Positions 23,579 to 57,285 are shown, numbered from the stretch's first letter. The stretch is DNA of 64,000 nt from an uncultured Clostridia bacterium (GCA_947305865.1 CAMZEU010000002.1:1019-65018), one strand, 5' to 3'. Notes: generated from the sequence alone by a model not told the origin. Program-made: numbers and translations.

Positions 23579-23594
23579 AGTTTTAACTATTAAT

Positions 23595-23626
23595 GTGTAT
23601 ATACGTACGACGGCGTATATATACAC
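23595..23626 (+). promoter_or_regulatory. 5' UTR stem-loop abutting the SD of the giant ORF
   Basis: GTGTATATACG (23595-23605) - TACGACGG - CGTATATATACAC (23614-23626): 11 bp with a 2-nt bulge. GGAGG (23627-23631) and the ATG at 23636 follow immediately. Confidence 0.5.
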
Positions 23627-23635
23627 GGAGGAAAA

Positions 23636-23704
23636 ATGAAAAAACTTTATTTACTTTTAATCATCGTACTATTGATTACATGTTGCTGTACATTGTTTGC
23701 ATGT
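23636..23704 (+). other. Sec/SPII-type signal peptide with lipobox-like L-F-A-C (Cys23)
   Basis: MKK + LYLLLIIVLLITCCCTLFA + C, then NKKTNVEPQ. Positively charged n-region, hydrophobic h-region, Cys at +1 (codon 23702-23704). The -2 Phe is non-canonical, so this needs LipoP or SignalP. Confidence 0.6.
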
Positions 23705-26700
23705 AACAAGAAGACGAATGTTGAACCACAAGTTATTGTCGTGGACCCTATAACCCAGGATACCGCAGTCAATACAGTCTCAAGTGCTTATGCATGGGAA
23801 AAAGTCAAAAATGCAGCACTTAACACGAACACATCCACAGCTGGATTCTTAAACTTCAATACCATATTAGGTTTTGATTTCAAGAAGAATGGGAACGGAA
23901 ATAAATTCGTCCTCCAAGTTGCTGGATCCATCAATCAGGAGGACACGCCTAACTCAAGGATTTATATCGGGCTGGATAAAATCACTGTCGATAATGTCCA
24001 AAGCCGAGTTGCAGCGTTGTACTATGTAGATGGATGGTGCTATGCTGACTTCACGGGAGTTAAGAAAGGCGCAGAAATAGTTAAGACAGATAAGATTGAT
24101 TTAGCTTATTTCGCAGACAGAATTCACAACATGTTCGCAGGAACGAGTGTTGCGGATCTTTTCTATAATACACTCCTTGGATTAGACCTTGGTTCATTCA
24201 TAGATTTGATGTCAGGTCAAACATTAGATGGATTGCTAACAAGCATGTTGCTTCCAGAGACCATTGATATTATCGACCTTGGAAATGGTGAAGAACAAAT
24301 TAAGTTCCCATTCCAATTGGAAGACTTAATGGATATGGTTCTTGGTTTATTATCTGGTGTCTTGACAGATGATATTAAGGACTTGGTATTCCAAGTATTA
24401 GGATTAGACTTATCTAGAATCGATGCAATAGTTGGTAGCGAAGTTAAGGTAGTCTTAGATACAAAGATTAAGAACGGTGTTCTTAAGTCCTTAGAATTAC
24501 AACTTGATGCTCCTTTGGATTCTATAAAGACCGATACAGCCGGTACTTATGGATATTTCACAGAAGACATTTCACTCTCCGTCGGTGCTTTACAAATAAG
24601 CAAGGGTGTCGATCCTAACATCTACTTCAGTGATGAAGTTGGTGCAGAGGAAGATCCAGCATCTTATGTCCTCCTACCAGATGCTTTAAAAGAAGTCGCA
24701 AAAGAATATTCAGTATTAGACTTTGATATAACTCTTAATGCTGCAATTAATACATCAGAAAAGAAGATTACAATCCAAGACATAGATAGTGCTCTTGGTA
24801 AGCTTCTTTCAAATCTCTTAAATGAAACAATCCCAGCAAATTCTCCAATTTGGGGAACAAATATCAATTTGGCAACAACAAACTATGCTTTAACAATTGA
24901 TATTAAGGGAACTCTTAACTTAACAGACAATTCAAAGACCGAATTAGAAATCAAGCTTAGAGATGCTCTCTCAAGAGGCCCAGAAGAAAGAATGGCAATC
25001 TACTATGTAGGTGCGACAAAGACTCTTTATGTAGATATCTCTAACATTATTGGTGAACTTGGCCGTTATAAGATAACAGACTTAGATATCGCAGAAATAG
25101 TTAACGATGCTTTAAGTGGCATTAATATTAAGTCATTAATAGAAAATCTATTAAGTGGTATTGGTTCAAGTGAAGCTTTATCAGAAGCAGAAATTAGAAC
25201 ATACGAAGAATTATTAACAAAACTCGAAGACGGAACAATTCCTCTTAAGATTAGCCATGCTACAACAGCAAGTGGAACTGTAACCTCCGTTCTCGATTTA
25301 ATTATCGATATCGTTAATAGCATCAAGATTGAAAAAGAAGATGCTCCATATGACAATCTTTTGAACATCCGTTCATTGTTGATTTCTATTTCTAATGATG
25401 CAATTGACTATATTAGTGAATTAATCTTCCCAGCAACAAAGAAAGATGATGATGGCAATGAAATTGCAAACCCATTATATGGTTCTAAGTTGCCAATTGC
25501 TGGATTTGACATTAGTTACTATAACTACGGTGTTGCAAAAGAAAAATTAATTAACATTGACTTAAGATTAGGCGACGCACAAGGTATCTTTGATGGTATG
25601 TCAATTGGTATTGGCATTAATGCCAAGTTTGGAACAACCACTTGTGCAGCAAAGAGTACTATAAGTAGAATTGGAGACAGCAATTTTGTATCACTTGGTT
25701 CAATAGGTAAGTTGTCTGAAATCTCACAAGTACTTGAAAATATTAATCTCAAAAATATTTATCTCAAACTTGAAACACAAGTTGGATTCTATATTGCTCC
25801 AGGAACTTTGACAGATATTCAAGTAAACTCACTTGAAGATTATCTCATTAAGATTTTATTCGATATAGCAGATAAGGTTAATGCATCATTGTTATTAACA
25901 ATTGAAGCAAATCTTGATATTAGCGACGGATTGAATAGCATCTTGAATTCAGTTGCAAAGATTGAATTATATGATACATCCAAGACTATTCCAGAGACAG
26001 GTGAATACAAGAAGATTCTTGGTTTATACTTAGAAGATAAGGTTATCTACTTAGATGCTGAATCTATTGGTTTAAATAAGATTTGTGTTGATATCTCATC
26101 GTTTGTAGGTGATTTATTCAAGAAAGATGAAGAAGCATCTTCAGCTTCAGATGCACTTACAGCAGCAGATGATGGCGGATTTGATTTTATTGGTCTTATC
26201 GCAGCAATCCTTGGCGATGTAACAGTAAGCAGAGATTATATTGAATTAGGCTTGGCAACAAACTTAATTAGCAAGGTATTTGAAGCATTAGGCGTAGATA
26301 TTAGCAATATTCTCACTGTTTCATTATTTGATGCAGATGGAAGTGGTGGATTAAGAATCACATTCAAAGATGGTCTTGATTTATCACAATTAGAGATTAA
26401 ATTGTTCGCAACACTTAATAACCAACTCGAACTAAATTTAACAATTGGTGGTTTCGATATGGCTATTAACAGTGATACATTACACGTAGACAACAAAGAT
26501 GAATTCATTGACATCTTCATGGCTCCATATGTATGGCTTGACGTTGAAGGTGGTATGTCTATTAAGATTAGCGAAGCTACTTTAGACCTTTCACAAAACG
26601 AAATGATTACAAACGCAATGGCTGAAGCAGGATATGATGTTGCTGATTTATCATCATCTGCAATTCAAATTCTTGAAGCTATTGACGTTGAGTATGATAT

Positions 26701-29700
26701 GAAGATACAAGCAAGTATCGATTTATGGCCATTGATTTCTTATTTAAATGGCGATAAGGATATATATACAGATAAGAACAATTCACAATTATTACTTGAA
26801 ATTGAAAAGATTTCACAAAGCTTGGATCGTAAGTTATTAATTGGTCTCTACTATATTGGTGGTGTATTGTATCTCGATGCAACCAACTTTGGTATTGATA
26901 GAGTAGCAATTAATATTGACTTGTTAGAATTAGTTATTAACCTTATCCTTAAGGATAAATATGTTGAAATTAAGGGCGATGATTTGAAACCTGTAGCAGA
27001 AGGCGGATATGCAGGACCAAGATATGTTGAGTCCAAAGATGCAGATGGAAATAGTGTTTATACAAGAGATGATGAAAACGGAACATTCAAGTATATCTTA
27101 GATACTATTAGAATCAACCCATCATCCGAGGCATCCTCTGCAGGTGATCCAGATCCACAATTAACACCAGTAGAGAAGCAAAAATTAGCTATTGTTATTC
27201 AAGCTGAAATTTCTTCTACTGCATTTATGGTTAAGTTGGTAGATGGTTTAACTCAAATCTTAAATGAAAAATTAGGTCTCGACTTACCAGGTATTGCATT
27301 ATGGTTAAAACTTGCTATTGCACCAGATTATGTTGAAGATGCAAATGGAATTTATAGATTTGTTGAAGACAAGAATGGTGAATACTTTGTAAATAATAAG
27401 TATGGCAACTTTGTTGTTGCAGAACCAAGCTTTACAGGTACAAAATACAAGAAGATGCCAAACTTCTTATCAAAACTTGGCGTTTCAGCACACTTCGGTA
27501 TTCTCGATGAAAATGGTGATGATGATAATGGTATTGATGTATCAATTAGTAAGTTAGAATTACAAATTGGAGAATTGAAACAAGTTGCTGCAGATAATGT
27601 AACTAATAATGCAGATAAATATGAAACAATTACTCTACTTGACGAAAATAATAACATAGCTATTGAACAAGCATTTATTGAGTTAACAGGTGCTATTAAT
27701 CTTTCTGCTCAAGGAACAAACGGTGGCTATGAAGATTGGACTGTTGGTGATTGGATTTCAGCAGTAGTTTCTCAAGATTCAAAGACAATTCAATCTATTT
27801 TACATGGATTATTAGTAAGAATTGGTGTTAACCACAACATTAGTACAACAATTGGATTTAGAATTGCACTTCTTGCGAGATTCAATTGGGAAAATGGATT
27901 TGATATCAACTATGTATTATCTCACTCTGATTTGAGAATTGAGTTATACAAAGGTGAATATGTTGCTGGTGGTAACAATACCAACTTGATTACACTCTCA
28001 CTTCTTTACCAAGGAGACGTTGCAGGTGTTCCTTCAAGCACATTATTCTTAGAATCAGATTTACAAATCATCCAAAATACAAAGATTTATTTGGATGGAA
28101 TTAATCTTGTAACATTACTCGGTTTAGATAAATCTAAAGAAGAAGAAAATGCCGAACCAGAACAAACAGCAACACCAGCTCCTTCAACAGATCCAGCCCC
28201 ATCTACAGATGAACAAACATCATCCGAAGAAGAAAGTGGTGGTCTCTTAAGTGGACTTACAGGTAAAGGCGGTATATTAAGTGATATCCCAGCATTACTC
28301 AACAGCACAATTTATTCTGTAACAGCAAGTATGGATGAAATCAAGATTTCATTCGCAAAGAATCTTGCTGCATTCATTGTTTCTCTCATTGTTGGAGATG
28401 GCAATGACCAATACATCGAATTAGATGATGGTGAATTAAATACTGTTGGATTAGAAGATCGTTATGCTGTTGTTTATGTAGCAGACGATTATGGTAACTT
28501 CTATCAACATACAAATGGAAATTATTACAAGATTAAAGATGCAACATTTGATGGACAAAGATATGAACCTAGATTTGTATCTCTTGCAAATAATCTCTAC
28601 AAGAAAGTTGATGATACATACACATTACTCACAGCTGAAGAATTATACACATATTCTGGAGATAGATATTTTGAATATGCAGGAAATAAAGTAAAGTTTG
28701 TCGGAAATTATTATAAGTTCACTGTAAGTGATGAAGGCACAGACTATACAATTACAAATATTCAAGGTTTTGCAACTCCATTAACAGCAGCTGAAGAATC
28801 TGATGTATTTAAAGGAACAAGATATAGAGCAGATTATATTGCTTTAGCAAATAACTTCTATACAAAATCAGGAAACAATTACGCTTTAATAGAGAATATT
28901 TATACATTCTCTGGTGAAGCATATTACAAGATTGGTGATGAATATACATTATTCGATGGAACATACTACAAACTCCAAAGTGATGGTTCATATGCAGTAA
29001 TTTCAGATGAAGATAGAAAGACATTCGATGGCGCTCTCTATGCTGTAAATTATGTAAAGGATAACAATGGAACATACAAGTATGTTTATGCAATGTATGA
29101 TTACATTGACCAAGATGATGGCTCAAGATATAAGTGGTTAAAGGACTTCTTCCCAATTAATCCAGAAGACAGCTTCCTCTCATTAGAATGGGCTAATACA
29201 TATCGTCTTGAATTCAGCTTAGGTATTACTCCAGTCGCTCTTGGATTAGAACTTTCCAAGATTAGACTCTCTCTAAGTGATACAGCATCCGTATTGGAAT
29301 CACCAATTAATAAAGCAGAATATAACAATGTTCTCGACTTTGAAGATTTAACAATTAGTGCTGCAATAGAAATTAACTTCTCACTCGCAGAAGCCAGTGA
29401 AGATAACCCATATGCAATTGGCGATTATATTTCAGTATTCCTTGCAGAATTGGCATTAAAGTTCGGTATCACAGTTGAAAGCGAAATCGGTGTAAACTGG
29501 GAATTAAGACTTGATGCAAACCTTAACACAAAGGATTCTACAAAAGCTCAAATCTTATTAGAATTAAGAGATATTGAAAAGAGCAAGATGATACTTGGTA
29601 TCTACCTTGTAAACAGCAACTTATATGTTGATATGGGATTCCTTTCTGATTATGACTTTGTAATTGAAGGAACCAACTTCGCAGTATTATTAACAAATGT

Positions 29701-47700: not shown

Positions 47701-50700
47701 AACAGGTGGTACTTATACATTCGCAACAATTGCAAAAGATATGAATGGTGCTGACTTACTTGCTAGATACGATACAGAAAATGATGGCAAGACTCATGTA
47801 ACTGGTCCAGCATATAAGACACGTGTAAGATTTGATAGTGATGGAAACGTAATCTTAACAACAGGACTTAGCACAAATACAACAACATCCACATGGTATT
47901 ATCAACATAAGGATGAAGATGGTGTATTGTACTATACAAAGGGTTCAGCAACAGGAGCAAGAATTGAAGTTGATTCAATTACAGATCCATTATATGCATT
48001 GTTCGATAGTTCAAAGAACACAGCATTTAATAAGTTGAAACTCAGCAGAAATTACCCAGCAGGATCCATCTCATGGAACTATGGAGACTACAAGTATAAC
48101 TTCCATAATGCAAGTGTACAAGTTGGCTTCTCATATTCATGGGGCTTCACATCACAATCTCAAAAGATTACTATCCCAATGGTAAATTACGAGATTACAA
48201 AGGCTGGAGTAACTAAGTACTTACAAGATTCAGCTGGACAAAACTATGTAAAGACATTCACTAACTTGAATTCATTAACACTTGCTAATGTAATTACAGA
48301 TACAAATAGCAATGGAAAGATTGATAAGGCTGAATTTGTAAGCTACATCAAGTCATTCAAGTATGTAAGTGGTAAGTATACAAGCAACAAGTCATTCTCA
48401 GGAATCTCTGCAGAATGGGATACATCATTACTTGAAGATGCTATTGACGATATCACAGAAGACGGCGTAATTAAGTTCTACGAAGGTCTCAATGTAACAA
48501 TTCCATTGTACATTGGTGGTAAAGAATACAAGCTCAAGCAATTCAAGACAGCAACTGGTGATTCATACGGATTCAATGGTAATGCAGATGAAGATACAGT
48601 TTGCAAGACTCCATATGCACAAGCTGGATATGTATCACAAGTAATTTATGTAACTATTACTGTATCTTCAAGCAAAGTAGATTCTATTTCTTCAGAATTT
48701 ACATTCAACCCATATAGCTCAGATGATATCGATGCAACAGCCGGTATCAACACAGGCAGTGGATTAGATATTACAACATCATTTGGTGATCAAGTAATGG
48801 TTGTAATGAAGGGTGCTAAGAAAGCAACATCCATCTCCTATGCAAGTGAGACAGCCAAGATTTCTGGACCATACTATGTAGCAAGAAGACTTGCAACACT
48901 CAATGTAAAGGAAACTGACTTAATCGTTCCTGGCACAAATGGTACAAAGACAATGGCTGAATTCATCGAAAGATATGTAAGCTATGATGGACTTGAAGAA
49001 AATGACTACAGAGTATATGTTAAGTTAATAATCGGTAACAGCAGTACTGGTGGTGAACAAGTATTCTACAAGCAAGTAACATTTGCTAAGTTAACACCAA
49101 CAGTTGTAACTAGAGATGTAACAGATACATTCAACCCATATTGGTATAAGGGTGAAGATGCTAACCATGTAGGTTACAACACATTGAATGTATCATTCAA
49201 GGAAATCTCTGGAACAGTTGCTATGACTCCAGATTGGTCACAAGTCAAGTACTATTCAGACGCTGGACGTACAAAGGAAATTAGCAACATTGCTAAGGGC
49301 GGAATTGTTTATGCAACAGTACCTGCAAAAGTAACAATTGGAACAGGAACTGAAGCAAAGGCACTTGCTCTCAAGTACGTAAAAGACGATGATGGTAACG
49401 AATCATATGTTCCACAAACAATAGTTGTAAAACTCAAAGTTCAAACTAAGAGTGTAAAGGCTATCACATTCTATAAAGATGATGTCTATGGAACAAATAC
49501 AATTATCAACAACAGTTCTACATTGTTGAATGTTAGCAACTACAGTTCTAGTGTTTATGCTCCACATGTTTCACAAGATGGAACAGTATACAGCATTGAT
49601 ACAAAGGCATACTCATTAAACCCAGAGTATTACTTCCGTGCTCCAGATCAAACAGCAGATGACTATAAGACAATTGTAGAAAGAGCCTGGAACTGTATCA
49701 GAGGTATTACAGGATATAATACATCACTCATTAGAAGACAAGTTCAAGAGAATTGTACAATCGTTTGTGTTGAAGAATACAATGGTACAAAGACATTGGC
49801 TATCATCAGTAGTTGGGATTACACAACATATACAAACAATGTAAGTGAAAAGAGTGTAAGCGCTAGAATCTCATTCACAATTGGTAACCAAGTATTCTAT
49901 ACAACACTCTTAACACCATCTTACAAGATTGACAATGTTGAGTTGTTGAACGAAGACGAGACTCCATTCACAGGCTTTGCAGCAGATGAAGATGAATTAG
50001 TCTATGATGCACGTACAGCATGGACAGCTCCATCTAAAGTAAAGGCTACAATTGATTGGAAGTATGCCTTCAATAATGTAACAACAATGAATGCACAAGA
50101 TGTATTAAGTGCTTACTTCCCATATCTCACAAATGCAAGCCAAATCAAGTACTATAGAGAATTGAATGGCGCATATGTTGCAACAGAAGATTGGGTAAAT
50201 GAAGTATATTACAAAGTTGCAAGTGCATACTATGTAACATATGACAAGTATGTTGAAGTAAAGGGCAATGTAGCAATTGACGATGCTAAGAAGTACAAGA
50301 TTGGAACAATGACTGTAGCAACAGTTGCAGATGCAGAATCTACCTCATTGTATCTCAATACAGCAGGTCAATTCACTCCATTGAATGAAGCTGAACCAGC
50401 AACATATATTGAGAACAACCCAGGTGCAGTATTTGTATTCAGTACAGAAGGCGATACTTACTACAACATCGTAGAAGAAAGCACAACTGGATTATATGTA
50501 AAGATTGCTGCAGCAGGAGAATACATTGACTTCACAGATTACTGTGCATTCGAAGAAATAATTGCAAAGACATATACTGGCGAAAACGTTTATGTAAAGA
50601 ATGGTGGTGTTTACACAGCAGCAAATACAGCTCTATTTGTAAAAGCTTATGATTATGACACAATCTCTGATGTAAGCGTAAGATTTGTTGGTATTAATGG

Positions 50701-53700
50701 AACTATCGAAGCTGGTGTAGTACCAAGCCTTGCAGACTTGTTCGAAAATGCAGAAGGTAAGTTCGTATGGATGTACGTAGATATCTTCTCAGAAGCTTCA
50801 TTAATTAAGCAAACAAGAGCATACAAGGTCAAGTTCGAACATCTCGATGACAAGATTACAAAGATTGAGTTCAGCTATGATGACTTAAGCACAGATGATG
50901 ATCTTGCTAAAGAATATGGTATTGTAGACTTTGGCACAATGCCAACTAAGGCAAGAGTAACAATCGGTGAAGGTGATGATACTATGACACTCGAAAGAGT
51001 TGTATCTTGGACATTGTTCGATACATACACCACAGAAGAGTTAACAAATAGAGTAGTAACCAGAGAAGGAAGATTAGGAACAGGATTGCCATTCGCAGAT
51101 GGCGCTAAGTTGTTCATCGGTGGAGCAGAAGCAGATGCAACAAGTTACACATTGAGTGGAACAACAATCTCATTCAACACAACAATCATTCCAGCAGATA
51201 AGGTTGAAATAGTAAGTGGTCTTGATACAACAACATGGAACGATGCAGATGATAAGACATTCACATTGAAGTCTTCTGAATTCGCAAACGGATTGCCAAC
51301 AACTGTAACATATTACACAACAATTGGTGGCGTACAAGAAACCAAGGTTGTAACAATTGAGTGGTTGAACGTTGTAGACTTAACACCAGTTACATATACA
51401 ACAAGCGGTGTAACAAATAGAATCGTATATGCTAAGGCAATTTGCGATAATATTTCAATACTCAATATTGTTGACTTAACAATCGAACCAATCAATGTAT
51501 TAGGCATTGAAAGCATTAATAATGAAGTAAGATTCGTATATGACCCATATGGAATCATCACAGATGCAGACCTTAATGCAGATGAAGAAAAGGTATTATT
51601 CAACGATGGTGACACAGTTGGTGTACAAATCAGCTATGTAAGTGGTGAAGATACAATCACATCAACAGTAGATGTTGTTGTAAACATCTTAGATGATACA
51701 TTATTAAAGGCTTCTAGAGACGCTACAAAGTGCAATAGCGTATTTGGTAAGACAATTGACCTACCAATCAGATACAACTTCGCAGACGGCACTGTAGTTG
51801 ATGCAACAATTGCTGTATACATTGAAGACAGAACAATTAAGAGAGTTGAAAATGCTGCATTACGTTCAATGGTTGTAGATCCTTATTACTATTCATCATT
51901 CGGTACACTCTTCGATGAGAACAACGAAATGATTGAAGGTGGATACGGATATCCAGAGAAAGTAAGCATGACAATGAAGAATAGACTCGCAGACAATAAT
52001 GCTACATTAACACATTATGTAACATTACCAAATGATTCAATCATTGCAGATGCACTCAAGAAGGGTGGATACATCAATTCTTCATATCAACTCTTAGTTG
52101 GATACAAGGTTAACGATGATGTATATGCATATCAATACATCACAATGCCAATCTCTGTAATTAACCGTACAATCGCAAGTGAATTCTTTGTAATGCCAGA
52201 TAACTACAAGTTATCTAAGGTAACAGAGTCTTCATCCAAGCTCACATTGACATACGTTGAAGAAACAAGTGGAAACTTAATGAGATTCGTATATTCAAAG
52301 GGATCCAATAGACCAGAAACAATATACTTCGATAATGCATTCGACTTCGATCTAGATATCATCCCATCTCAAATGAACATCTCATTCTCCAATGGTGAAG
52401 GTAGAAACTACTACATTAGAAAGACTGCATTAAGTGATATTGCTTCAGCAGAGGATGCAAAGAAAGTTCAAAGAGCAGATATGACTATTGAAGTATTGAA
52501 TAAGAATCCACAAGACACAGACGATGTCGTAGTACTTGATACATTCAAGATTGAAATTGTACGTAGTGCAAATACAGTAACTAAGTTCAATTCTGATATC
52601 GTATATGATGATGAATTCGCATACAAGTATGTATTTGATCCATACACAAGCAATTATGCAGATAGCATCTACAACACAGAGAACTATAACACTGCAGGTG
52701 AAAAGAACTTCGCTGAAACTGGTATATTCTATGTAGATGGTACATATGTATTAAAGGCAACTTATGATGATAAGTATGCAAATGTAAGATACATTACTAC
52801 ACCAATTGCAAGTATGGCACAATACTCTTCATGGGTAGCAAACGGAAAGACTGCAGATGGCGAATATGTATACAAGGTATTGAAAGATGGTGGAAATAAC
52901 ACAATCTACTACAGATACAATAGTGATACTAAGTCATACTATCCAGTTGCAGAAGCACAAGACGCATACGTATTCATGTATACAATTGCTACAACAGTAA
53001 ACCTCACATGGGATACAAGCAAGGTTAGATACACATATGCAGGTGGAATTCACAGTGCTACAGTAACAATTACTGGTTCTAATGGCATTGCTAAAGAAAC
53101 AATGCAAGCCCCACTCTCATTCGTCGACAGAACAATCGACAACGATACAGATGGAAAGGGCGGAATTAAAGTTGGTTCAAGTTATGTAACATCATTGTCA
53201 TTCGACCCATGGACAACTACAAACCATGAATATGTAGATTATCTCAATGCAAGAAATAATGATGGTTATGCTGGAGTTCGTTACTATCTCGCAAAAGATG
53301 GTTCATACGAAAAGGCAACATTATACTATGACTCTGTAAGAGATACATACTACAAGTTGAATGGTAATGCATATGCATCAACAACAGAGAAGACTGGTGC
53401 AATAGATATTAGCGATGCTAAGTATAAGGCAGTAAACTATGTACTCGGATACGATAGCAACCATACTGCAATCACAGAAGAAAGATTTGTTGAAATGACA
53501 GATTACGAAATCTATGGAACATACAAGTACTTAAGCAATACTGGTAAGGTTTACTTCAACGGTACATCAATTAATTACTCAAGTGTAACATGGAACGTAT
53601 TAAGTGTCACAATAGACTATGCAGGTGGTGAATACAAGGCATATGCATACATCAATGGATTTGGTGAATACAACTTCAACGGAAATAAGGTTGGAACACA

Positions 53701-54937
53701 ACGTGCAGTTATTACAATTACTGTATTAGACAGAACTATAACAGCTCTCTCAACAGCAAACGAAACAGCTATTAAGTCAGCTGCTCCAAGTTACTTGTCA
53801 AGAGGCACAACAGCTGCATCAAGCATTACATCAATCAATCCATATGATTATCAAGCACCAACAATGCCAACAAGCTTAACTGTAACAACAGCACAAGGCA
53901 CAAAGACATTCTATTCATCTGACAATGCAAATTATGAAAGCAATAAAGAGTACAAGTTAGTATGGAGTTATTCTAAGTTCAGACCAAGTTATCTCGGTGG
54001 TGTAGTATACATCAACGCATTGTTAACAGGTCCAGATGGAAGCACACAAACATATAGATTACCATTTGCAGTAGAGAAGATGCTCGCAAATAATATCAAT
54101 TCTGTTTATGCTTCATCTCCAAGAACAACTGGAAACTATCCATTCACAAGTACTGTAACAACAGCTGGTAAGGCAAATTCAAGTTATGAAGTAGACCCAT
54201 ATGCTCCACTTTCACAAACATTGCCACAGAACTATAACGTAACATTCACTAAGTCAAAGATTTCATCTATCACAATTGGTGCAGATGGATATCCAACCAA
54301 TGATTACACATACACATCAGATGGTTCACAAACAATGTTATTCGGTTACGCTAAAGTAAGTATGCCAGCAACATTCGCATTGAAGTTGAATACAGACGGA
54401 ACAATTACAGATGGATTAACAAGCAATGATGATAGAATTGCAACAATCTATCTTGGATCACAACAACGTATCACAGCAAACTTCACATTGAAGTCTAGCA
54501 AGACAACAAGCACAACAATTCCAAGCTATACATCCGGAAATATTGCAAACTTCAGATTACCATTTAAACAATCTGGACAAACAGTAAACGGAACAATCGT
54601 ATGGATTGGAACTGCAGTACCAAAGGACTATGAAGGCAACAACAAGTTAACAAAGGCTCAAATTGTAACATTCTCAGCTGGTACTCCATTGTTAAATGGT
54701 TCTGTAAACAGCATCGCACTTCCAGATAAGGGCAGAAAGGTTGTTTACACATTAACAGCAGTTGTTGGTGCATTGGTAGACAAGAATGGTACATTGCTTG
54801 ATACAGAAACATTAACAACATCAAGAACCATTAATGGAATTACATTCCCAGCAGGAACAATTCTTCCAAAATATACTGGAGTTGGATCTAAGTACACAAT
54901 TACAGTAAATCAAAATGGTACAGTTAACGTAGGCTAA
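23636..54937 (+). CDS. giant (10,433 aa) predicted surface lipoprotein of unrecognised family, highly repetitive and modular
   Basis: Uninterrupted 31,302-nt ORF in AT-rich DNA. The other five frames over this span hold only ORFs of 126 aa or less. It has its own promoter, SD and flanking hairpins. N-terminal signal peptide with a lipobox-like LFAC. Internal repeat families are described in separate features and findings. Confidence 0.9.
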   Translation: MKKLYLLLIIVLLITCCCTLFACNKKTNVEPQVIVVDPITQDTAVNTVSSAYAWEKVKNAALNTNTSTAGFLNFNTILGFDFKKNGNGNKFVLQVAGSINQEDTPNSRIYIGLDKITVDNVQSRVAALYYVDGWCYADFTGVKKGAEIVKTDKIDLAYFADRIHNMFAGTSVADLFYNTLLGLDLGSFIDLMSGQTLDGLLTSMLLPETIDIIDLGNGEEQIKFPFQLEDLMDMVLGLLSGVLTDDIKDLVFQVLGLDLSRIDAIVGSEVKVVLDTKIKNGVLKSLELQLDAPLDSIKTDTAGTYGYFTEDISLSVGALQISKGVDPNIYFSDEVGAEEDPASYVLLPDALKEVAKEYSVLDFDITLNAAINTSEKKITIQDIDSALGKLLSNLLNETIPANSPIWGTNINLATTNYALTIDIKGTLNLTDNSKTELEIKLRDALSRGPEERMAIYYVGATKTLYVDISNIIGELGRYKITDLDIAEIVNDALSGINIKSLIENLLSGIGSSEALSEAEIRTYEELLTKLEDGTIPLKISHATTASGTVTSVLDLIIDIVNSIKIEKEDAPYDNLLNIRSLLISISNDAIDYISELIFPATKKDDDGNEIANPLYGSKLPIAGFDISYYNYGVAKEKLINIDLRLGDAQGIFDGMSIGIGINAKFGTTTCAAKSTISRIGDSNFVSLGSIGKLSEISQVLENINLKNIYLKLETQVGFYIAPGTLTDIQVNSLEDYLIKILFDIADKVNASLLLTIEANLDISDGLNSILNSVAKIELYDTSKTIPETGEYKKILGLYLEDKVIYLDAESIGLNKICVDISSFVGDLFKKDEEASSASDALTAADDGGFDFIGLIAAILGDVTVSRDYIELGLATNLISKVFEALGVDISNILTVSLFDADGSGGLRITFKDGLDLSQLEIKLFATLNNQLELNLTIGGFDMAINSDTLHVDNKDEFIDIFMAPYVWLDVEGGMSIKISEATLDLSQNEMITNAMAEAGYDVADLSSSAIQILEAIDVEYDMKIQASIDLWPLISYLNGDKDIYTDKNNSQLLLEIEKISQSLDRKLLIGLYYIGGVLYLDATNFGIDRVAINIDLLELVINLILKDKYVEIKGDDLKPVAEGGYAGPRYVESKDADGNSVYTRDDENGTFKYILDTIRINPSSEASSAGDPDPQLTPVEKQKLAIVIQAEISSTAFMVKLVDGLTQILNEKLGLDLPGIALWLKLAIAPDYVEDANGIYRFVEDKNGEYFVNNKYGNFVVAEPSFTGTKYKKMPNFLSKLGVSAHFGILDENGDDDNGIDVSISKLELQIGELKQVAADNVTNNADKYETITLLDENNNIAIEQAFIELTGAINLSAQGTNGGYEDWTVGDWISAVVSQDSKTIQSILHGLLVRIGVNHNISTTIGFRIALLARFNWENGFDINYVLSHSDLRIELYKGEYVAGGNNTNLITLSLLYQGDVAGVPSSTLFLESDLQIIQNTKIYLDGINLVTLLGLDKSKEEENAEPEQTATPAPSTDPAPSTDEQTSSEEESGGLLSGLTGKGGILSDIPALLNSTIYSVTASMDEIKISFAKNLAAFIVSLIVGDGNDQYIELDDGELNTVGLEDRYAVVYVADDYGNFYQHTNGNYYKIKDATFDGQRYEPRFVSLANNLYKKVDDTYTLLTAEELYTYSGDRYFEYAGNKVKFVGNYYKFTVSDEGTDYTITNIQGFATPLTAAEESDVFKGTRYRADYIALANNFYTKSGNNYALIENIYTFSGEAYYKIGDEYTLFDGTYYKLQSDGSYAVISDEDRKTFDGALYAVNYVKDNNGTYKYVYAMYDYIDQDDGSRYKWLKDFFPINPEDSFLSLEWANTYRLEFSLGITPVALGLELSKIRLSLSDTASVLESPINKAEYNNVLDFEDLTISAAIEINFSLAEASEDNPYAIGDYISVFLAELALKFGITVESEIGVNWELRLDANLNTKDSTKAQILLELRDIEKSKMILGIYLVNSNLYVDMGFLSDYDFVIEGTNFAVLLTNVLNQVLGGMGISFGGTESEATTAAETNSVDAGIILNLAERDIQLKITEAVIFAIISAVIGTGDASNAVDLLQQLGLKLSIDLDLDLRNVALALKIDSSILDPKNSISEVDINGNTVYTTEVYRDFFNMELNIVAPKISFAPTDADIAAIKESIEKAIYTGILLVELTDEEKDHGYGKWVKEPVLLSPKTDYVVGNPIVGTYYTMFDGYFYPASGYFKAEEHYYRIDETTNKTEAIYKLLTARGFGQTVDEEFDFDRFDVFNNNPILSFDLDLFVDLFVSTTFKYEGEKAKNYSPSQRYTKRLSDGRFVQDDDGLYVQQTLSMDELLDALVSLPFVQNLIVSLENNESVGEILGPVVSSLAKQLSFQALYQAPLDLNIVLSIKGNIDLGVLGISSLLTTGDLGELNFDIQTLLSAINLGIEISFNKGDSKSKIGIYLVNGNLVIDLSDLSGPTIKASLFDILSMFDVDASTILNNSEATTSADEEESTIEKVARILNGIVDAVIFETGTQTIPFLNESYSTLDDVKIRFNKNIVANLLELIFKIPFKAEGYELDESNSGLYLFFHDSRFANDPTLVNSEGINPFKGWALEVEASLSNGMYFDMATGIGATIRIGKEAKELLSQENLNAAVEITDYLENLFGTFGLIDKVGTYVTVSTYESEYVDAQDRIDPTSRYNKVVDGYTQVGGLVGEYVLLVGEEDYISAKRFLPLNQYAIYFENGVVADVDNTLRYTRTEVKEGEQTVGYTYEQNSAGEYVLYATQKHVLKSLYLKANDIETLPQTMATFNPTYKYVQNNEGDFVFIKEGEYISAKDYAKYLGQERVAALVRYDREPVYAQSNVGEFVKLVDEYMPVAAYIAFTNVVDVPKEIRYNREDGKYVQKDDGSLVHIDVLYVNITRYCLLNGVTEDSIDRRTRYNFDGYRYSRDDENGEYVRAESLEYNGIDERGIVVDYNLYSTVVADTARYRYIKTVVTQNNQGEYVKLPKGTIISLEDYAYYTGTAIADIPLSIRINADEEPDQNGTRVKTTSEMIVTLAQYCVRNSISDANIDSMVPISIRAAVKEVYDVWADEDGDGYKDWTDSDNDGKDDKTGIAVTTKYTLADYPYTFIPAEYSSQNIYLSLNARLFFETVDKKSVNIGGLLTNWLGDAIIELTSGNIFKDGIGARIAINLDIASLDLSNGLNSILNSDFSNIEIGLELLETDENGQIIVDEYGNTKQKGGLYLYHGTLYLDGMGIFPDANQYSYIPNFMELIQNVINYDFSFQELIDGISNEIGLGTTSAESSTSSEEDRNAILELLTTDTSVQLVLTKSLIAVIIAALLPEVGSVAEVFDQFSLTLGIDFGSSNYKMFSDWRYRDVNGGVYESDAKYYNVEYTTLVEGTDYNVGDIISVVAYTKPGSEYIPAYGCFETSTTYYTLRKTALTVGLDYQLETSINSGVYELVSTETALDYVLDDIAGSKQRYAISDVQKTTYTDVAAFTAKAGYVLGEDANGYKIFSYLTQAQIHNIITNKGSVDVYRLTFVENNAGLYMYVEDDFGQYYACILPLSERYTYHSSIDYELTNGFDEGNESRIPTDIQSEYVDVVKVASQQGQFARAYVENRWLYVDTERYPLMYSFNGEKFYKNASDFYDLYNTTPGFSYTEGLSMIVNTTTKESYTYVYYYNNYYVVSGLYNKLTGYTTDSKGVYYSKLHVFTNIYEYGVTLAFDINGVHAGLTINGLKIDFGAGHSILPQRIIKQQTEGTYTLGIRYKEIYGQAAYDAVQKKDKYKLTKYGYVQDDYGNYIRHDYEYCPLVIFYDSTIELSFSVELELSIDEGKIDIGPLFEDLLGDLDGVSIEIPATTKGYSSAHFRLDASLKIDMYDLSNSELVMELYSIGITGYETLWLGVYYIADVIYINAAVLGLPKMSITSFGIMTYLNTILKDIIGEFYNENVLPDAEDSSSEAGIASDAITANTANGEIDVSVLFDRRTLSVQVANTFIRWALGLVVIDKDSGLTIADLVSQHLIAGVGLDMRLEDGFNLDLNVALGFKGDRFTIIREDQEELAKNKFYAFDRNELGDYVLEDGVLRVIKPSEKVDALSRYTLNENTTLVEGKKKVYFDTYAEAEAAGNYVAYLSAAKSEANMEEYDMNLDLYVGIKNLNIAFNSVHEFKLTAEDIGEYSEVGELEHISLQEVIDITTLFKADSNIDLAEILTYFFPEVDADSIIAEITAESDSHGDIHRIIEAEINMDIKIAALMNYFRQVFTMGTANFNSDFSISDLISIIKAVLNKDDNLNVYQILDDVLSYINTSVVIRTRCGYDELTGQYTDTHNWISIFFVGGEFELLQENNFGVYGYRDDKTTFVDKEHRYSHYFKAADNNGPYYYNADTKKYDLITENFEEDVDTYYYDSTYCYLNENGEYYRHNGGLYVDLSYFNIPSLYLQSTSIEHLFESLSLNDTINGLLGGSEASTPEEKVVASTESDATAAVSFPLLNEEVSGYIRAFLYGLKITSQLTSVIVQPDYINQILKLVMGEDGAIKFSYLDNQEYKYDKDGNVQHASSLTIYADRSAYNFITSSYAFASEINDSNARFLATYNQEEGQYIINPIDYIITMAEFTAEFGTTFTTDPVTAEISNPEVDRRFENAPIRCDSIGNPDVDGDHVKFTRYEYQEKKNLSEAELDYYVAANGLFFDVDMTDTYVYVGNGFTYFGQAEPDASTTGIFNDYTSNFAYFYGIVGNEYVKLTLKDNRYLYIGSSDTPYTGVDVYVSSGKMSKLSKVTKTERRYTYTDVETYYTPVKFTTGDWVLQSDGSYKLYAGMSIVEQSEVDANDRYNMMPMYLTGSVVEVSTDTWQKYRYRTLVNSEYDSIVNHGRIYVDGVKRYMDMIIFTENMAYVTYQAKTTVDGPVRTMYIPEMMNNLLIRPTTYTPVSVTAAEIIAKAKIGTDYCFYGYDLKKYEFVALAWDTTNNYWYLSTDTEHTRYTGALYMLSIHDEYNPIITIPASNVKNDSLMSLQLYLWEHTITIDINVPKIDAVDFTYLTKTDYEAINGPDSAPKAALFSREPQYIYTPIDPVSFTYDNTEEYFFINQGEYYELSDASIYTYGGGTYTLVGTNDFTHGDAWDIKYYIGIPEEDPTIYKLVEKKKVYTRAISKYVYTKDESGEYVRVKIDSSVTYSRFAYSKISEDEFVNGYIAAAANYVYDANTYSYVVSTDPSATLTYKDILFVYDETTYHYVSIRDYEAEHSGYDFTSTTIYKARGIEYVSTDDVYYISLSLDGSMYMNSAKVYKNLADFATSKKSSMYNSKTIWKKDSVAIENANGIYVKVIDNYYGAGDGYYMPVNSYKALTDKPVTDGKFYNLRAQAGNYVRATDGNWYCADNNPAANGHNIIDMLYSEDLIVDTDDIYVFQQGGYAKLGSVLDKKDYVKTHESTQYYLMYSSGATSTLNKVLSGIVGDLGTELDFTSELSGEIEFKITLSYGGTLLLGTNEETGEFQFGLDVFNLELAIDTWRRTNHVDDNTLTHVFGLYYDRDDSVGKSGLYLDLSYFLNEEAKVYIDLSDCPLEDFINSKLYYEKVETYYEATAASEDTDATTASSTVLSGGNMTAAYFNIYTSAFGLSVTSGFLKVLLNNLITGFEQYAGYIPNIEIFIKGELDPYRLAVGLTLDDDEGNALVEAGVRLNGITGDYNTGTVLDFGSLAKYDSIDMTSRDYIFYYGNFVRVDKLGTVSSYDSSVQYYGKDGERKGYVTIASDNYGVAGSWYYTEDGIEAVSGARYNNKVYTRSNKIRVNEDYKQALKLIETNTYASYNFKESKDENDDVIDFYGLVNGNFIKVDYDVYNLVTDNTGLWYYTLDNESACKLAESRFRGEVYFRTTAYGEENYETISVKYNKTIQGWQYVKYDAYGNEITDAYGNVMYYSYPGDVTFVYSGALYRVTPVYGVVDGVESQLTYDAVNGWLYAGNPYDGEIYKKDEAGLATMDYVKIMGLNLEDMFAEGFSLDNLDLGALLGDLKSFELGLNIDFQLTFADIISFTEQMSTFIGKDFNFIATSLTKQGYSFDTVFDISIELKAYLDLARLVSGLTSTSGDKDILSMLVGTTIYAKIGLKSTYLATYNPEQLTDWDATTIILMANLTEDNDSNVLLNLYLDLSDLSRQFPALGDVFDKVKYEGLNLTKIIGSTSAESAIARDSVATSAALELNTADAGDVDMGLLGTFDAGATIYSLLDALVGRVMITNDMLSIGFKETLLGSIVEMISSRLTDEEKSKLPTLRVTNGKDTSGITLDFNDDGHIALYAVIGIESGILSYSNDSAYTPLSDVKYAFDDKTGKYYVAPAATGKNTNVMLSDGEYSLVEYVDKLDRWALQSYVALTAEEKAIRAAVYTTDDGINYTQREYNGNNGLTYYKYVGGNYVELRYADKLLLEKKLYTLSASVYTEYTGVVDPANTYYVETGNFTYTMVPRYIAITNAERAILEATLYTKSGNNYVVETGAFDATKTYYIDSGINKVELTAEQRLILLKATFTTTNGTTFVETAFDKTDETTTYYFLDSYEMIREIDGNGSYLYLGYYNIELKASNIYARINKDFSVDDKIDKDGIHYEVYKDITKLTLNLNIEFDISLYGNSDPGITGNDNVVDLSQILNLVANLINNEDIVEAFEGAELYTRFKGDIGSDSNPTYNLSLNVFIDIADFKNLQATIELKQYKKLGPGEAFTGEFMPNPVLSAYLFNDNIYVDAHGLLGDAGLISIDNLGLAKLLDTIEIAGTKLGTFLGHDMSAYEDKSSGEATTAAHVMDNVEDVSTVFGTAAYLLMTTFPRQFFIQLNSAAVNAIINRIREAQGKANSDYLPDIGALLISFDSDNTDEILYTNIYAKVTDSFYLALEAKKVTWSREKQPCEFNIDSILQVSSYTSSNTIFTSGSDKQYYRYEKATYIALTDEQAAQLSANGTIIYKNYTGDANRPAFIAKSDINFVKVGNNYEYSSTGTPIYMTPVKYESAANYTYFRYQQDNYIEIPMYKGDRYKLVGSTYELDPKGTYYYDKEEEIYKTLVGGTLEQVKAGTAHYQNNYTGTIYESRFQSVYDIGTGDIKLETLSLSVTGELNLTSDGIVKGQTNYDKTFSYWIAKFLADLLGESDLAGGILKGITADKISLIFPQKTINVVINIMADVNIPAIVKYGISGILYSDIYLQLIEGAPINKTFMEIYYLGSSRLTQTGNIYTLSPNGTIFSDCIYLNLEGLGLGSIAFHGLTGILGAKQPDYVTASTTAETEASEAVTSAASSSLYLELGIEHGGFSLKLEKSVIDFALGLLDLDIDLSEMPLQYIELESRYSLDVGVSDLSITAVLDSVGTMLGIKLGNFDISFSERKLDLEAKIAACQYGSAGITYSKVAGIGALLQNVIDSLNVGLTIHIDRKVDTINLTTLSWFTWKGRRDNRYTSVTLNGIKTKSSIDAEPASYKLKFSISALHPSAASSPMTANLYFYNNDLVLGGFDLQTTIADILGNFLKKIDLGSGKPMFEFANVMGADTAEYTYPSSTTTDPAKDTTTSAADQYKNGNYKYAANLEGLIAGLELDFCTSNNYHPYYSGMGTIDGSAATDMKYVSVHIEFGKQAFNELLIFLYTTVLSLLQGKEGEESKGIDTSSNWADSDDAYFVKMSAFSWTSDGEGSESQLDSNVDSTYGVSGGLAKMFEHIDSLTTTAARVNFLEPIIKSIPVALLRTILYNVAGVSATLISLAGTVAGGTLGNFCRLVGAILPLPFASMSSSVANPSAHIYIDLDPDPSVYNRSGYTMHPGVQAIELYINAQKVVLGSPANSLNGTQIYTWGGYSSYRGATDTSTQTKYTIPSLGNGVTNMSNTQQMLVLRIDPYSTESNSITSPLLGFDEADAASLIGTAPSEIYITDPANRSGYVKVGSSSQDFVLNATAFQDTSIFPAKANVTFTNGEPSSDTGGTVVVWDAGGVDFTPYEGEIGEKFAGYVYGYALNICVAAVPVYVTNDYGFKSIKAYKYDGSTWKTEAITRDMQSNVDDLPDMVKISFQTGGTYTFATIAKDMNGADLLARYDTENDGKTHVTGPAYKTRVRFDSDGNVILTTGLSTNTTTSTWYYQHKDEDGVLYYTKGSATGARIEVDSITDPLYALFDSSKNTAFNKLKLSRNYPAGSISWNYGDYKYNFHNASVQVGFSYSWGFTSQSQKITIPMVNYEITKAGVTKYLQDSAGQNYVKTFTNLNSLTLANVITDTNSNGKIDKAEFVSYIKSFKYVSGKYTSNKSFSGISAEWDTSLLEDAIDDITEDGVIKFYEGLNVTIPLYIGGKEYKLKQFKTATGDSYGFNGNADEDTVCKTPYAQAGYVSQVIYVTITVSSSKVDSISSEFTFNPYSSDDIDATAGINTGSGLDITTSFGDQVMVVMKGAKKATSISYASETAKISGPYYVARRLATLNVKETDLIVPGTNGTKTMAEFIERYVSYDGLEENDYRVYVKLIIGNSSTGGEQVFYKQVTFAKLTPTVVTRDVTDTFNPYWYKGEDANHVGYNTLNVSFKEISGTVAMTPDWSQVKYYSDAGRTKEISNIAKGGIVYATVPAKVTIGTGTEAKALALKYVKDDDGNESYVPQTIVVKLKVQTKSVKAITFYKDDVYGTNTIINNSSTLLNVSNYSSSVYAPHVSQDGTVYSIDTKAYSLNPEYYFRAPDQTADDYKTIVERAWNCIRGITGYNTSLIRRQVQENCTIVCVEEYNGTKTLAIISSWDYTTYTNNVSEKSVSARISFTIGNQVFYTTLLTPSYKIDNVELLNEDETPFTGFAADEDELVYDARTAWTAPSKVKATIDWKYAFNNVTTMNAQDVLSAYFPYLTNASQIKYYRELNGAYVATEDWVNEVYYKVASAYYVTYDKYVEVKGNVAIDDAKKYKIGTMTVATVADAESTSLYLNTAGQFTPLNEAEPATYIENNPGAVFVFSTEGDTYYNIVEESTTGLYVKIAAAGEYIDFTDYCAFEEIIAKTYTGENVYVKNGGVYTAANTALFVKAYDYDTISDVSVRFVGINGTIEAGVVPSLADLFENAEGKFVWMYVDIFSEASLIKQTRAYKVKFEHLDDKITKIEFSYDDLSTDDDLAKEYGIVDFGTMPTKARVTIGEGDDTMTLERVVSWTLFDTYTTEELTNRVVTREGRLGTGLPFADGAKLFIGGAEADATSYTLSGTTISFNTTIIPADKVEIVSGLDTTTWNDADDKTFTLKSSEFANGLPTTVTYYTTIGGVQETKVVTIEWLNVVDLTPVTYTTSGVTNRIVYAKAICDNISILNIVDLTIEPINVLGIESINNEVRFVYDPYGIITDADLNADEEKVLFNDGDTVGVQISYVSGEDTITSTVDVVVNILDDTLLKASRDATKCNSVFGKTIDLPIRYNFADGTVVDATIAVYIEDRTIKRVENAALRSMVVDPYYYSSFGTLFDENNEMIEGGYGYPEKVSMTMKNRLADNNATLTHYVTLPNDSIIADALKKGGYINSSYQLLVGYKVNDDVYAYQYITMPISVINRTIASEFFVMPDNYKLSKVTESSSKLTLTYVEETSGNLMRFVYSKGSNRPETIYFDNAFDFDLDIIPSQMNISFSNGEGRNYYIRKTALSDIASAEDAKKVQRADMTIEVLNKNPQDTDDVVVLDTFKIEIVRSANTVTKFNSDIVYDDEFAYKYVFDPYTSNYADSIYNTENYNTAGEKNFAETGIFYVDGTYVLKATYDDKYANVRYITTPIASMAQYSSWVANGKTADGEYVYKVLKDGGNNTIYYRYNSDTKSYYPVAEAQDAYVFMYTIATTVNLTWDTSKVRYTYAGGIHSATVTITGSNGIAKETMQAPLSFVDRTIDNDTDGKGGIKVGSSYVTSLSFDPWTTTNHEYVDYLNARNNDGYAGVRYYLAKDGSYEKATLYYDSVRDTYYKLNGNAYASTTEKTGAIDISDAKYKAVNYVLGYDSNHTAITEERFVEMTDYEIYGTYKYLSNTGKVYFNGTSINYSSVTWNVLSVTIDYAGGEYKAYAYINGFGEYNFNGNKVGTQRAVITITVLDRTITALSTANETAIKSAAPSYLSRGTTAASSITSINPYDYQAPTMPTSLTVTTAQGTKTFYSSDNANYESNKEYKLVWSYSKFRPSYLGGVVYINALLTGPDGSTQTYRLPFAVEKMLANNINSVYASSPRTTGNYPFTSTVTTAGKANSSYEVDPYAPLSQTLPQNYNVTFTKSKISSITIGADGYPTNDYTYTSDGSQTMLFGYAKVSMPATFALKLNTDGTITDGLTSNDDRIATIYLGSQQRITANFTLKSSKTTSTTIPSYTSGNIANFRLPFKQSGQTVNGTIVWIGTAVPKDYEGNNKLTKAQIVTFSAGTPLLNGSVNSIALPDKGRKVVYTLTAVVGALVDKNGTLLDTETLTTSRTINGITFPAGTILPKYTGVGSKYTITVNQNGTVNVG
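28541..29160 (+). repeat. tandem aromatic repeats (87 aa, 73 aa, plus a partial third copy) inside the giant ORF
   Basis: ATFDGQRYEPRFVSLANNLYKKVDDTYTLLTAEELYTYSGDRYFEYAGNKVKFVGNYYKF (from 28541) aligns with DVFKGTRYRADYIALANNFYTKSGNNYALIENIYTFSGEAYYKIGDEYTLFDGTYYKL (from 28802). A third copy, TFDGALYAVNYVKDNNGTYKY, starts at 29021. Confidence 0.75.
31701..32870 (+). repeat. about 8 degenerate ~45-aa RY...GE[YF]V repeats inside the giant ORF
   Basis: SRYNKVVDGYTQVGGLVGEYV; LRYTRTEVKEGEQTVGYTYEQNSAGEYV; YKYVQNNEGDFV; VRYDREPVYAQSNVGEFV; IRYNREDGKYVQKDDGSLV; TRYNFDGYRYSRDDENGEYV; ARYRYIKTVVTQNNQGEYV. Each is followed by an aromatic ...Y..Y... segment. Confidence 0.7.
42710..43260 (+). repeat. 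four ~45-55-aa repeats (LTAEE-x-IL-x-AT ... YT..G.NY..ETG...TYY) inside the giant ORF
   Basis: LTAEEKAIRAAVYTTDDGINYTQREYNGNNGLTYYKY / ITNAERAILEATLYTKSGNNYVVETGAFDATKTYYIDSG / LTAEQRLILLKATFTTTNGTTFVETAFDKTDETTTYYFLDS, plus a more diverged copy in between. Confidence 0.7.
47260..54934 (+). repeat. C-terminal array of ~110-250-aa beta-sandwich-like units delimited by [DN]-P-[YW] and DRTI-type motifs
   Basis: [FVI]-[DN]-P-[YW] read in frame at 48704, 49130, 51542, 51878, 52637, 53204, 53837 and 54194. IEDRTI 51821, VINRTI 52157, FVDRTI 53120, VLDRTI 53723. Recurrent internal pattern: W-x-x-S/L...Y-x-GG...V-x-I-T-G. Confidence 0.6.
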
Positions 54938-54966
54938 TATTATTAGTCTTAACTAAAAAACAAAAT

Positions 54967-54990
54967 CCTCCCCGTGTAAAAGCGGGGAGG
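54967..54990 (+). promoter_or_regulatory. GC-rich hairpin 30 nt after the giant ORF stop that includes the SD of the next gene
   Basis: CCTCCCCG (54967-54974) - TGTAAAAG - CGGGGAGG (54983-54990). No U-tract on the plus strand; an A-run lies upstream. The right arm is the only SD-like sequence before ATG 55002. Confidence 0.5.
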
Positions 54991-57280: not shown

Positions 57281-57285
57281 TTAAT

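Follow-up and report, generated by a model that had tools for sequence, protein, structure and literature searches.

A 31.3-kb gene of an uncultured Clostridia bacterium encodes a predicted giant lipoprotein of an unnamed family from gut Clostridia

A single open reading frame of 10,433 codons, which occupies nearly half of a 64,000-nucleotide stretch of DNA from an uncultured Clostridia bacterium (GCA_947305865.1, CAMZEU010000002.1:1019-65018; hereafter, the window), is a genuine single chromosomal gene under purifying selection. Judging from the sequence, its product belongs to an unnamed family of giant predicted lipoproteins (6.5-10.4 kaa), present in MAGs of Christensenellales/Clostridia and in gut metagenomes, many of them human, and it is the longest member of this family seen so far. 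According to the structural model obtained, the module of ~235 aa from which a large part of the protein is built has a fold without a solved relative and constitutes a new family. Regarding its function, we lean, with somewhat better than even confidence, towards a core scaffold, sheath or fibre of the cell envelope, which would be lipid-anchored and non-enzymatic.

The ORF scan returned one uninterrupted frame on the + strand, starting with ATG, whose coordinates (23636-54937) and length are exactly those given for a 31.3-kb ORF in an earlier reading of this DNA made from the sequence alone (the sequence-only reading). The same reading had found nothing longer than 126 aa in the other five frames across this span, and the longest ORF detected there (34929-35309, - strand) has precisely that length. 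The GC content of the DNA is 0.34-0.39, at which a stop would be expected in ~7% of random codons, and 10,433 open codons would be reached by chance, following our own arithmetic, with a probability of ~e^-770. Taking this GC content into account, a chance origin of so long an open frame is ruled out. The calculated product has 1,157 kDa (1.157 MDa; ~1.1 MDa had been estimated), a pI of 4.43 and a net charge of -619. Its composition, already described as sparse in Cys and enriched in Tyr, Asp and Thr, includes 0.31% Cys, 7.5% Tyr, 7.8% Asp and 8.7% Thr, with Ser, Ile, Leu and Gly also being abundant.

That the frame arose from faulty assembly or from the fusion of several genes, or that it is a pseudogene in decay, is extremely improbable. 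Such an explanation could appeal to the metagenome-type origin of the sequence and to the central ~10 kb, where (nt ~26.7-36.8 kb) no same-species independent assembly was found and the support consists only of collinearity with distant orthologues; a metagenome scan with the Tyr-rich insert aa 2640-3140 likewise found no relative. Against it, contigs from six other samples span window positions 46159-64000 with 98.0-98.6% identity and zero gaps, and two further contigs span positions 21604-26707 (99.1-99.8% identity, also zero gaps), so that the 5' 3 kb and the 3' 8.8 kb of the ORF are covered by eight independent contigs. Inside the ORF, the differences between strains give a pN/pS of 0.14-0.17 and include no stop codon. 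Moreover, no long DNA repeats are present in it (the longest imperfect repeat has 37 nt, and tandem arrays do not exceed 51 nt), which makes a repeat-driven misassembly unlikely. In a congeneric water-buffalo rumen MAG (L009), the orthologue is collinear and 76.9% identical over aa 4394-10433 (6,046 aa), with 52 gap positions, and more than 60 loci contain intact collinear giants. The independent assemblies, the signature of purifying selection and the collinearity of the orthologues are thus the grounds on which we, in agreement with the sequence-only reading, consider this a real gene. Its codon adaptation, calculated with the ribosomal-protein genes of a neighbouring organism as the reference set, is uniform along the gene and reaches a CAI of 0.748, the fifth among 24 genes, against a window median of ~0.635.

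The gene had been proposed to be an autonomous unit, with an upstream terminator, its own promoter, a Shine-Dalgarno sequence and a downstream hairpin. The features of the 5' end were all recovered in the positions shown in Table 1. Between the promoter and the Shine-Dalgarno sequence there is a further hairpin, which matches no Rfam family and may stabilise the 31-kb mRNA against exonucleolytic decay. At the 3' end the proposal is doubtful: the hairpin exists, but the + strand has no T-run after it and the Shine-Dalgarno sequence of the next gene lies within it, so that there is no clear terminator. The gene that follows, encoding a permease, is also syntenic in related genomes. In nine of the 13 genomes with a visible 3' flank (L009, L010, L013, L015, L018, L020, L021, L023 and L024; GC range 36-61%) the common downstream order is Mem_trans permease, SPFH/Band_7_1 protein with zinc ribbons, zinc-ribbon protein and HTH-cupin (window 55002-59132). 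The SPFH/Band_7_1 protein of this string has three zinc ribbons, and a DUF1858 gene is sometimes found before the HTH-cupin gene. The pair formed by the SPFH and zinc-ribbon proteins may be comparable to the membrane-stress genes ydjG/ydjI of B. subtilis. This synteny adjoins a ribosomal-protein region, and it may reflect general conservation of gene order instead of a functional link.

No secretion-system or sortase genes were found within the 64-kb window, in line with the reported lack of type I, type V and type VII secretion components and of sortase in the neighbourhood. Other features of the window can be described briefly. Four tRNA genes are clustered at 12076-12407 (-), and the mechanical ORF 11387-12121 (HD domain, TTG start) overlaps the first of them, so that its true start must be located further in. 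The region 8194-11375 (-) encodes two unusual partner-switching fusions, one of a SpoIIE-type phosphatase with a HATPase_c_2 anti-sigma kinase domain (678 aa) and, in the next gene, one that joins STAS to an APH-type phosphotransferase domain (375 aa). At 12904-16560 (+) there are four genes without a Pfam match, except for a weak stand-alone NRPS-type condensation domain (14567-15862, E 1e-8).

Table 1. Features of the giant gene, its predicted product and its flanks (positions in the window; residues of the product in brackets)
Feature	Position	Strand	Evidence or remark
Intrinsic terminator of upstream PIG-L-family gene	23465-23491	+	8-bp GC-rich stem (23465-23484) plus T-run
Sigma-70-type promoter, TTGACT-17 nt-TAAAAT with TG extension (extended -10)	23550-23578	+	10/12 consensus matches
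5'-UTR hairpin, perfect 13-bp stem, directly 5' of Shine-Dalgarno	23594-23625	+	dG -15.2 kcal/mol; z -4.2 vs shuffles
Shine-Dalgarno GGAGG, 5 nt before ATG	23626-23630	+	sequence
Giant CDS, 10,433 aa	23636-54937	+	ORF; pN/pS; CAI
Signal peptide and lipobox (L-F-A-C23), predicted SPase II/Lgt substrate	23636-23704	+	only strongly hydrophobic segment, KD 2.83
Module 1, partial	23885-24103 (aa 84-156)	+	internal HMM, E 3e-21
Module 2	24698-25429 (aa 355-598)	+	internal HMM
Module 3	25736-26488 (aa 701-951)	+	internal HMM
Module 4	26528-27316 (aa 965-1227)	+	internal HMM
Tyr-rich insert, absent or short in 7-8-kaa relatives	28433-29185 (aa ~1600-1850)	+	
Module 6	29318-30037 (aa 1895-2134)	+	internal HMM
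Module 7	30668-31444 (aa 2345-2603)	+	internal HMM
Tyr-rich insert with internal ~150-aa repeat	31583-33019 (aa ~2650-3128)	+	
Module 8	33023-33727 (aa 3130-3364)	+	internal HMM; 36% identity to orthologous module
Tyr-rich insert	33743-35035 (aa ~3370-3800)	+	
Module 9, modelled copy	35051-35797 (aa 3806-4054)	+	AlphaFold2 pLDDT 78.7
Module 10, partial	36797-37210 (aa 4388-4525)	+	internal HMM
Largest Tyr-rich insert	37313-39835 (aa ~4560-5400)	+	63-70% identical to congeneric orthologue over aa 4594-4994
Module 11	39884-40624 (aa 5417-5663)	+	internal HMM
Tyr-rich insert	40733-41605 (aa ~5700-5990)	+	
Tyr-rich insert with ~47-aa repeats	42533-43315 (aa ~6300-6560)	+	
Module 13, partial	43502-44164 (aa 6623-6843)	+	internal HMM
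Conserved hub, most conserved part of the family	44798-48535 (aa 7055-8300)	+	
Beta-rich C-terminal tail, recurring W...Y.GG...(D/N)RTI	48533-54934 (aa 8300-10433)	+	aa 8594-9194 least conserved
GC-rich hairpin without T-run on + strand; holds Shine-Dalgarno (GGGGAGG) of next gene	54967-54990	+	
Mem_trans (AEC-family) permease, ATG 55002	55002-56078	+	directly downstream in 9/13 related genomes
SPFH/Band_7_1 protein with zinc ribbons, then zinc-ribbon protein	56159-58374	+	syntenic with giant gene in most relatives

The N-terminus (MKKLYLLLIIVLLITCCCTLFAC, followed by NKK) begins with MKK and ends in L-F-A-C23, which fits the lipobox [LVI][ASTVIF][GAS]C. The 18 full-length relatives examined, all of them strongly acidic, start with a signal peptide of lipobox type, and the lipobox Cys (...[AGS]C) is kept in every one of them. 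A Kyte-Doolittle analysis of the whole protein revealed no second TM-like segment outside the signal peptide. At the opposite end (...TVNQNGTVNVG, ...KYTITVNQNGTVNVG) there is neither an LPXTG sorting signal nor a C-terminal hydrophobic segment, and no RTX GGxGxD repeats were found in the protein. Both termini therefore agree with what the sequence-only reading had described, that is, an SPII lipoprotein signal, predicted here too, and a C-terminus without LPXTG, TM anchor or RTX repeats. Lipidation on Cys23, a surface location and a structural role can be inferred for the protein.

The absence of any recognisable family, another point of that reading, was borne out by database searches. Along the whole protein, Pfam returned no family, all matches with E<=1 being noise far below the cut-off, and NCBIfam gave no match. 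The EF-hand and GspH matches of Pfam (E 0.02-0.85) were discarded as part of this noise. A phmmer search against all PDB sequences retrieved nothing at E<=1, with the exception of one chance match (E=0.69). No known catalytic, secretion-signal or anchoring domain was detectable with Pfam and NCBIfam, as expected from the reported lack of a catalytic motif, and neither SLH, CWB2 nor any other wall-anchoring domain gave a match in these two collections. FIVAR/GA modules were not found by Pfam at E<=1, which, together with the beta-rich character predicted by the module model, supports the earlier statement that the protein has none of the helical character of Ebh. The RHS_repeat family (PF05593) has no match at E<=1, and the R-Y...D-G-x-Y-V pattern is similar to Rhs/YD-repeats by eye only. 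Big_4 (PF07532) was not detected in the window protein at E<=1; in the tails of three relatives (P0077, P0034 and P0089) it sums to 22-55 bits, with no single stretch being significant. Word-indexed searches for homologues recover this family poorly, and a protein database search with shorter queries returned four to five partial matches, all of them to 'hypothetical protein' entries from Clostridia or Christensenellales MAGs. No giant protein of Christensenellales was found described in the literature searched.

Since internal repeats appear only weakly in a self-BLAST of the whole protein, an iterated internal HMM was needed to define the module of ~235 aa. With this HMM, 11 significant copies (eight full-length and three partial) were identified in the window protein, together with ~3 weak ones, giving ~14 in total. 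They share a G-x-Y-Y/L-x4-L-Y-x-D hairpin, in which nothing but Tyr-Tyr-Asp is near-invariant. Each module also contains a loop rich in Ser/Thr/Ala/Glu/Asp in which the closest clade carries S/G-E-A-(V/I/L/A/T)-T-A-(A/D)-(D/E). This motif occurs once per module (window 23636-46000; for instance, aa 2036-2047, 2493-2504, 6769-6780 and 7254-7265), it is also present in P0001-P0014, and it is maintained across orthologues with GC contents of 36%-60%, while distant clades show ...ALAS(A/G)D... in its place. A conserved linear motif within a loop that is predicted to be disordered suggests a site of modification, cleavage or docking.

After the modules, the hub contains the motifs NELLIFLYT, LPLPFAS, NPSAxIYIDL, GIQAIEL, WDASSVDLT and AGYVYGYALN..PVYVTN. 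The repeats of the tail are too divergent for jackhmmer, which found no further copies when seeded with a tail domain. The last ~400 aa (window 53636-54934, aa ~10,000-10,433) are net basic (+9), whereas the rest of the protein carries ~-6 charges per 100 residues, and the tails of the relatives are also far less acidic than their bodies. From its charge, this basic end may bind wall polymers or a ligand.

One of the modules (aa 3817-4054) was modelled with AlphaFold2 from 67 orthologous and paralogous sequences, with a mean pLDDT of 78.7 and 66 residues at or above 90. The model contains four helices and 13 strands, of which several extend over 10-14 residues, and its acidic loop (residues 130-162) has no regular secondary structure, the pLDDT falling below 50 at residues 141-156. 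When Foldseek was used to compare this model with PDB and BFVD (viral models), no match reached E<=1e-3, the best PDB hit having an E of 0.28, with TM values of at most 0.22. The fold prediction and Foldseek search that the sequence-only reading had recommended, carried out on this one module, thus gave no significant match in either collection. A longer segment (aa 3800-4600; 801 aa, six orthologues) was modelled with a pLDDT of 43.6 and was left out of the fold search. Taken together, the internal HMM, the module model and the weak Big_4 signals in relatives are consistent with the amphipathic beta modules, acidic linkers, Tyr-rich repeats and beta-rich tail that had been recognised by reading.

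The distribution of the family, which the sequence-only reading had proposed to define together with its synteny, was established with a ten-module profile and a collection of 1.84 billion representative proteins (E<=1e-3). Only 117 clusters were retrieved, many of them with 5,000-7,924 aa and 9-14 copies of the module. The family is defined here by at least nine copies of the ~235-aa module with its hairpin and acidic loop, by the hub motifs and by a collinear order of the parts; the window protein has the module copies, the motifs LPLPFAS, NPSxxIYID, GIQAIEL and AGYVYGYALN, and the collinear order. By the same count that gave 11 significant copies in the window protein, relatives have 7-11. 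The closest relatives (P0001-P0014) are collinear with it over the whole length between signal peptide and C-terminus, with 24-36% identity, and the window protein is ~2,500 aa longer owing to Tyr-rich insertions and a longer tail. End-to-end similarity to a characterised family, which would have contradicted the sequence-only reading, was not found, all collinear relatives being unnamed. In a more distant clade, three proteins of 7.3-7.9 kaa (P0019, P0020 and P0022) share the N-terminal lipobox and the modules and have different C-terminal halves, in which CarboxypepD_reg-like segments can be seen by eye.

A scan for the hub motifs in one genome per GTDB species yielded 16 loci, all of them in MAGs, from rumen and from mouse, rabbit and human gut, with GC contents of 36%-61%. 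Fifteen are labelled as Clostridia, Clostridiales, Christensenellales or 'Christensenella sp.', and in 16 of 16 the frame is open to the edge of the locus. The other locus (L020, CAZQGE010000002.1) is labelled 'uncultured Bacteroidaceae bacterium' and has a downstream synteny of Clostridia type and a GC of 0.39; the contig has probably been mis-binned or mislabelled. A metagenome collection supplied 50 more loci, many of them from human gut and with coverage of up to 176x, 47 of which are open upstream to the locus edge, bringing the loci to 66. Among them is a human-gut group with a GC of 0.50, near that of Christensenella species. In one human gut contig (L045, OPIW01000005.1), the frame ends 1,016 codons after the hub match, compared with ~2,365 in the near-identical L041-L053, which may reflect truncation of the allele or a mistake in sequencing or assembly.

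When compared with its positional orthologue in other species, a module scores 70-160 bits, against 27-42 bits when compared with other modules of the same protein, from which it follows that the module array is old and that its positions are not interchangeable. Identity to the congeneric orthologue is highest in the modules and the hub (82-90%), and lower in the Tyr-rich inserts (63-70%, aa 4594-4994) and in the tail (54-64%, aa 8594-9194).

Among known giants, Ebh and Embp share with the window protein, as judged from its sequence, a size of ~1 MDa and an extracellular, non-enzymatic and modular nature in a Gram-positive lineage. Ebh has helical FIVAR/GA modules, a signal of YSIRK type and a membrane anchor at its C-terminus, whereas the window protein has no Pfam matches to FIVAR/GA, modules that are beta-rich in the model, and an N-terminal lipobox anchor. 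Giant adhesins secreted by T1SS (LapA, SiiE and MpIBP, of BIg/RTX type) are also very long, acidic and beta-rich, but their Ig repeats are nearly identical and arranged in tandem, they carry RTX/T1SS signals at the C-terminus, and T1SS genes lie next to their own; no tandem BIg repeats, RTX or T1SS genes are found in the window protein or its locus. Sortase-anchored adhesins end in an LPXTG sorting signal, a hydrophobic stretch and a basic tail, the first two of which are absent here, as is a sortase gene in the window. Furthermore, classical adhesin stalks consist of recently amplified, near-identical repeats, in contrast to its old, position-specific modules. Its acidity and composition recall S-layer proteins, which are likewise rich in Thr/Ser/Asp/Tyr and poor in Cys and have the codon usage of well-expressed genes; however, it is 10-fold larger and lacks SLH and CWB2. 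With AsmA-like proteins and TamB it has in common its length, amphipathic beta-strands, interspersed loops and an N-terminal inner-membrane anchor, although there is no sequence, profile or significant structural similarity, its anchor is a lipobox and not a TM helix, and it is 8-fold larger. Finally, a preprint describes metagenome-derived bacterial proteins of more than 7,000 aa, among them 10-30-kaa proteins of Clostridia from mammalian guts; the giants of Omnitrophota are rich in TM regions and contain SecA DEAD-like domains, and those of Clostridia carry RCC1, Listeria-Bacteroides, YG, dockerin or LRR repeats (bioRxiv 10.1101/2023.11.21.568195). The window protein, in contrast, has one hydrophobic segment and none of these domains according to Pfam. 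In its way of working it would be most like the giant Gram-positive surface proteins, and the features that define the Ebh-type, sortase-anchored, RTX/T1SS, AsmA/TamB, S-layer (SLH/CWB2), Rhs and Omnitrophota-type proteins were absent from it.

In the mechanism that we propose, the host would be an uncultured Christensenellales (Clostridia) bacterium of the ruminant gut, and the product would leave the cytoplasm through Sec, receive a lipid on Cys23 and be held by it on the outer side of the cytoplasmic membrane. From this anchor, ~10,400 strongly acidic and non-enzymatic residues would extend outward, arranged as ~14 ancient, position-specific, beta-rich modules of ~235 aa with lineage-variable Tyr-rich inserts between them, followed by the conserved hub and the beta-rich tail. 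The protein would belong to the structural core of the cell envelope, where it would form a fibre, sheath or scaffold anchored in the membrane, and its variable Tyr-rich and tail segments would be exposed and in contact with ligands. Alternatively, it could be primarily an adhesin or aggregation factor, whose long stalk would present binding regions to plant fibre, to mucus or host glycans, or to partner microbes. We consider this unlikely, although it is the most probable of the alternatives. Its size, acidity and beta-rich modular build, with variable Tyr-rich inserts and tail, are typical of exposed binding regions; weak Ig-like Big_4 signals appear in the tails of distant relatives, the upstream genes encode glycoside hydrolases, and the hosts are gut and rumen organisms. 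However, the repeats are ancient and position-specific instead of recently amplified near-identical units, no carbohydrate- or host-binding domain is recognised by Pfam, and, unlike typical strain-variable adhesins, the gene is found conserved and intact throughout the order, with its synteny maintained. It is this order-wide conservation, together with the synteny, the non-interchangeable modules and the codon usage, that leads us to favour the core scaffold over the adhesin, even though the scaffold and adhesive roles are not mutually exclusive.

Two further explanations concern the modules themselves. These could form hydrophobic grooves or cavities (RBG/AsmA-TamB-like or TULIP-like), the protein then serving as a conduit or carrier of lipids or other hydrophobic molecules across the envelope, an idea suggested by the long amphipathic strands and very hydrophobic short helices of the module and by the appearance of lipid-binding folds (LBP, TamAB) among the non-significant Foldseek matches. 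Those matches, however, have E values of 0.6-0.9 and TM values of at most 0.16 (TamAB, E 0.92, TM 0.16), a comparison by hhalign between the module profile and TamB of E. coli yields a probability of 0.2%, and neither AsmA, DUF490 nor a related Pfam family matches at E<=1; moreover, the host lineage is not known to have an outer membrane. We therefore regard a lipid conduit as very improbable. A polyprotein precursor, from which cleavage or modification at the acidic-loop motif (S/G-E-A-h-T-A-A/D-D) would give subunits able to assemble into a surface layer, is also hardly probable. The presence of this motif once per module in a disordered loop, in orthologues and paralogues alike, and the S-layer-like acidity and composition would fit such a precursor, but no protease gene is linked, SLH, CWB2 and other wall-binding domains are missing, and the more distant clades carry a degenerate motif.

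Returning to the core scaffold, a bolder version of it can be put forward as a speculation, which we hold to be doubtful. The giant lipoproteins could be the main building block of an undescribed Gram-positive envelope, in which a few very large lipid-anchored proteins would form a proteinaceous sheath or exoskeleton across Christensenellales, including abundant human-gut species. Each of the ~14 modules, with its loop motif, would be fixed in a higher-order assembly, possibly processed or modified at the motif, and the fold would be new to structural biology.

A whole family of megadalton proteins has been missed by word-indexed or domain-based annotation, and a new family of ~235-aa modules, as well as a large conserved hub, can now be offered for structural study. 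Christensenellales are widespread in ruminant and human guts, and a conserved gene of 20-31 kb takes up ~1% of a genome of ~3 Mb, for a product without an annotated domain, a name or a structural relative among solved structures. Selection and codon usage suggest that this giant protein is made; if so, the cell surface must owe most of its cost and its architecture to it, and it would be an obvious candidate for envelope building, for aggregation and for contact with hosts or partner microbes.
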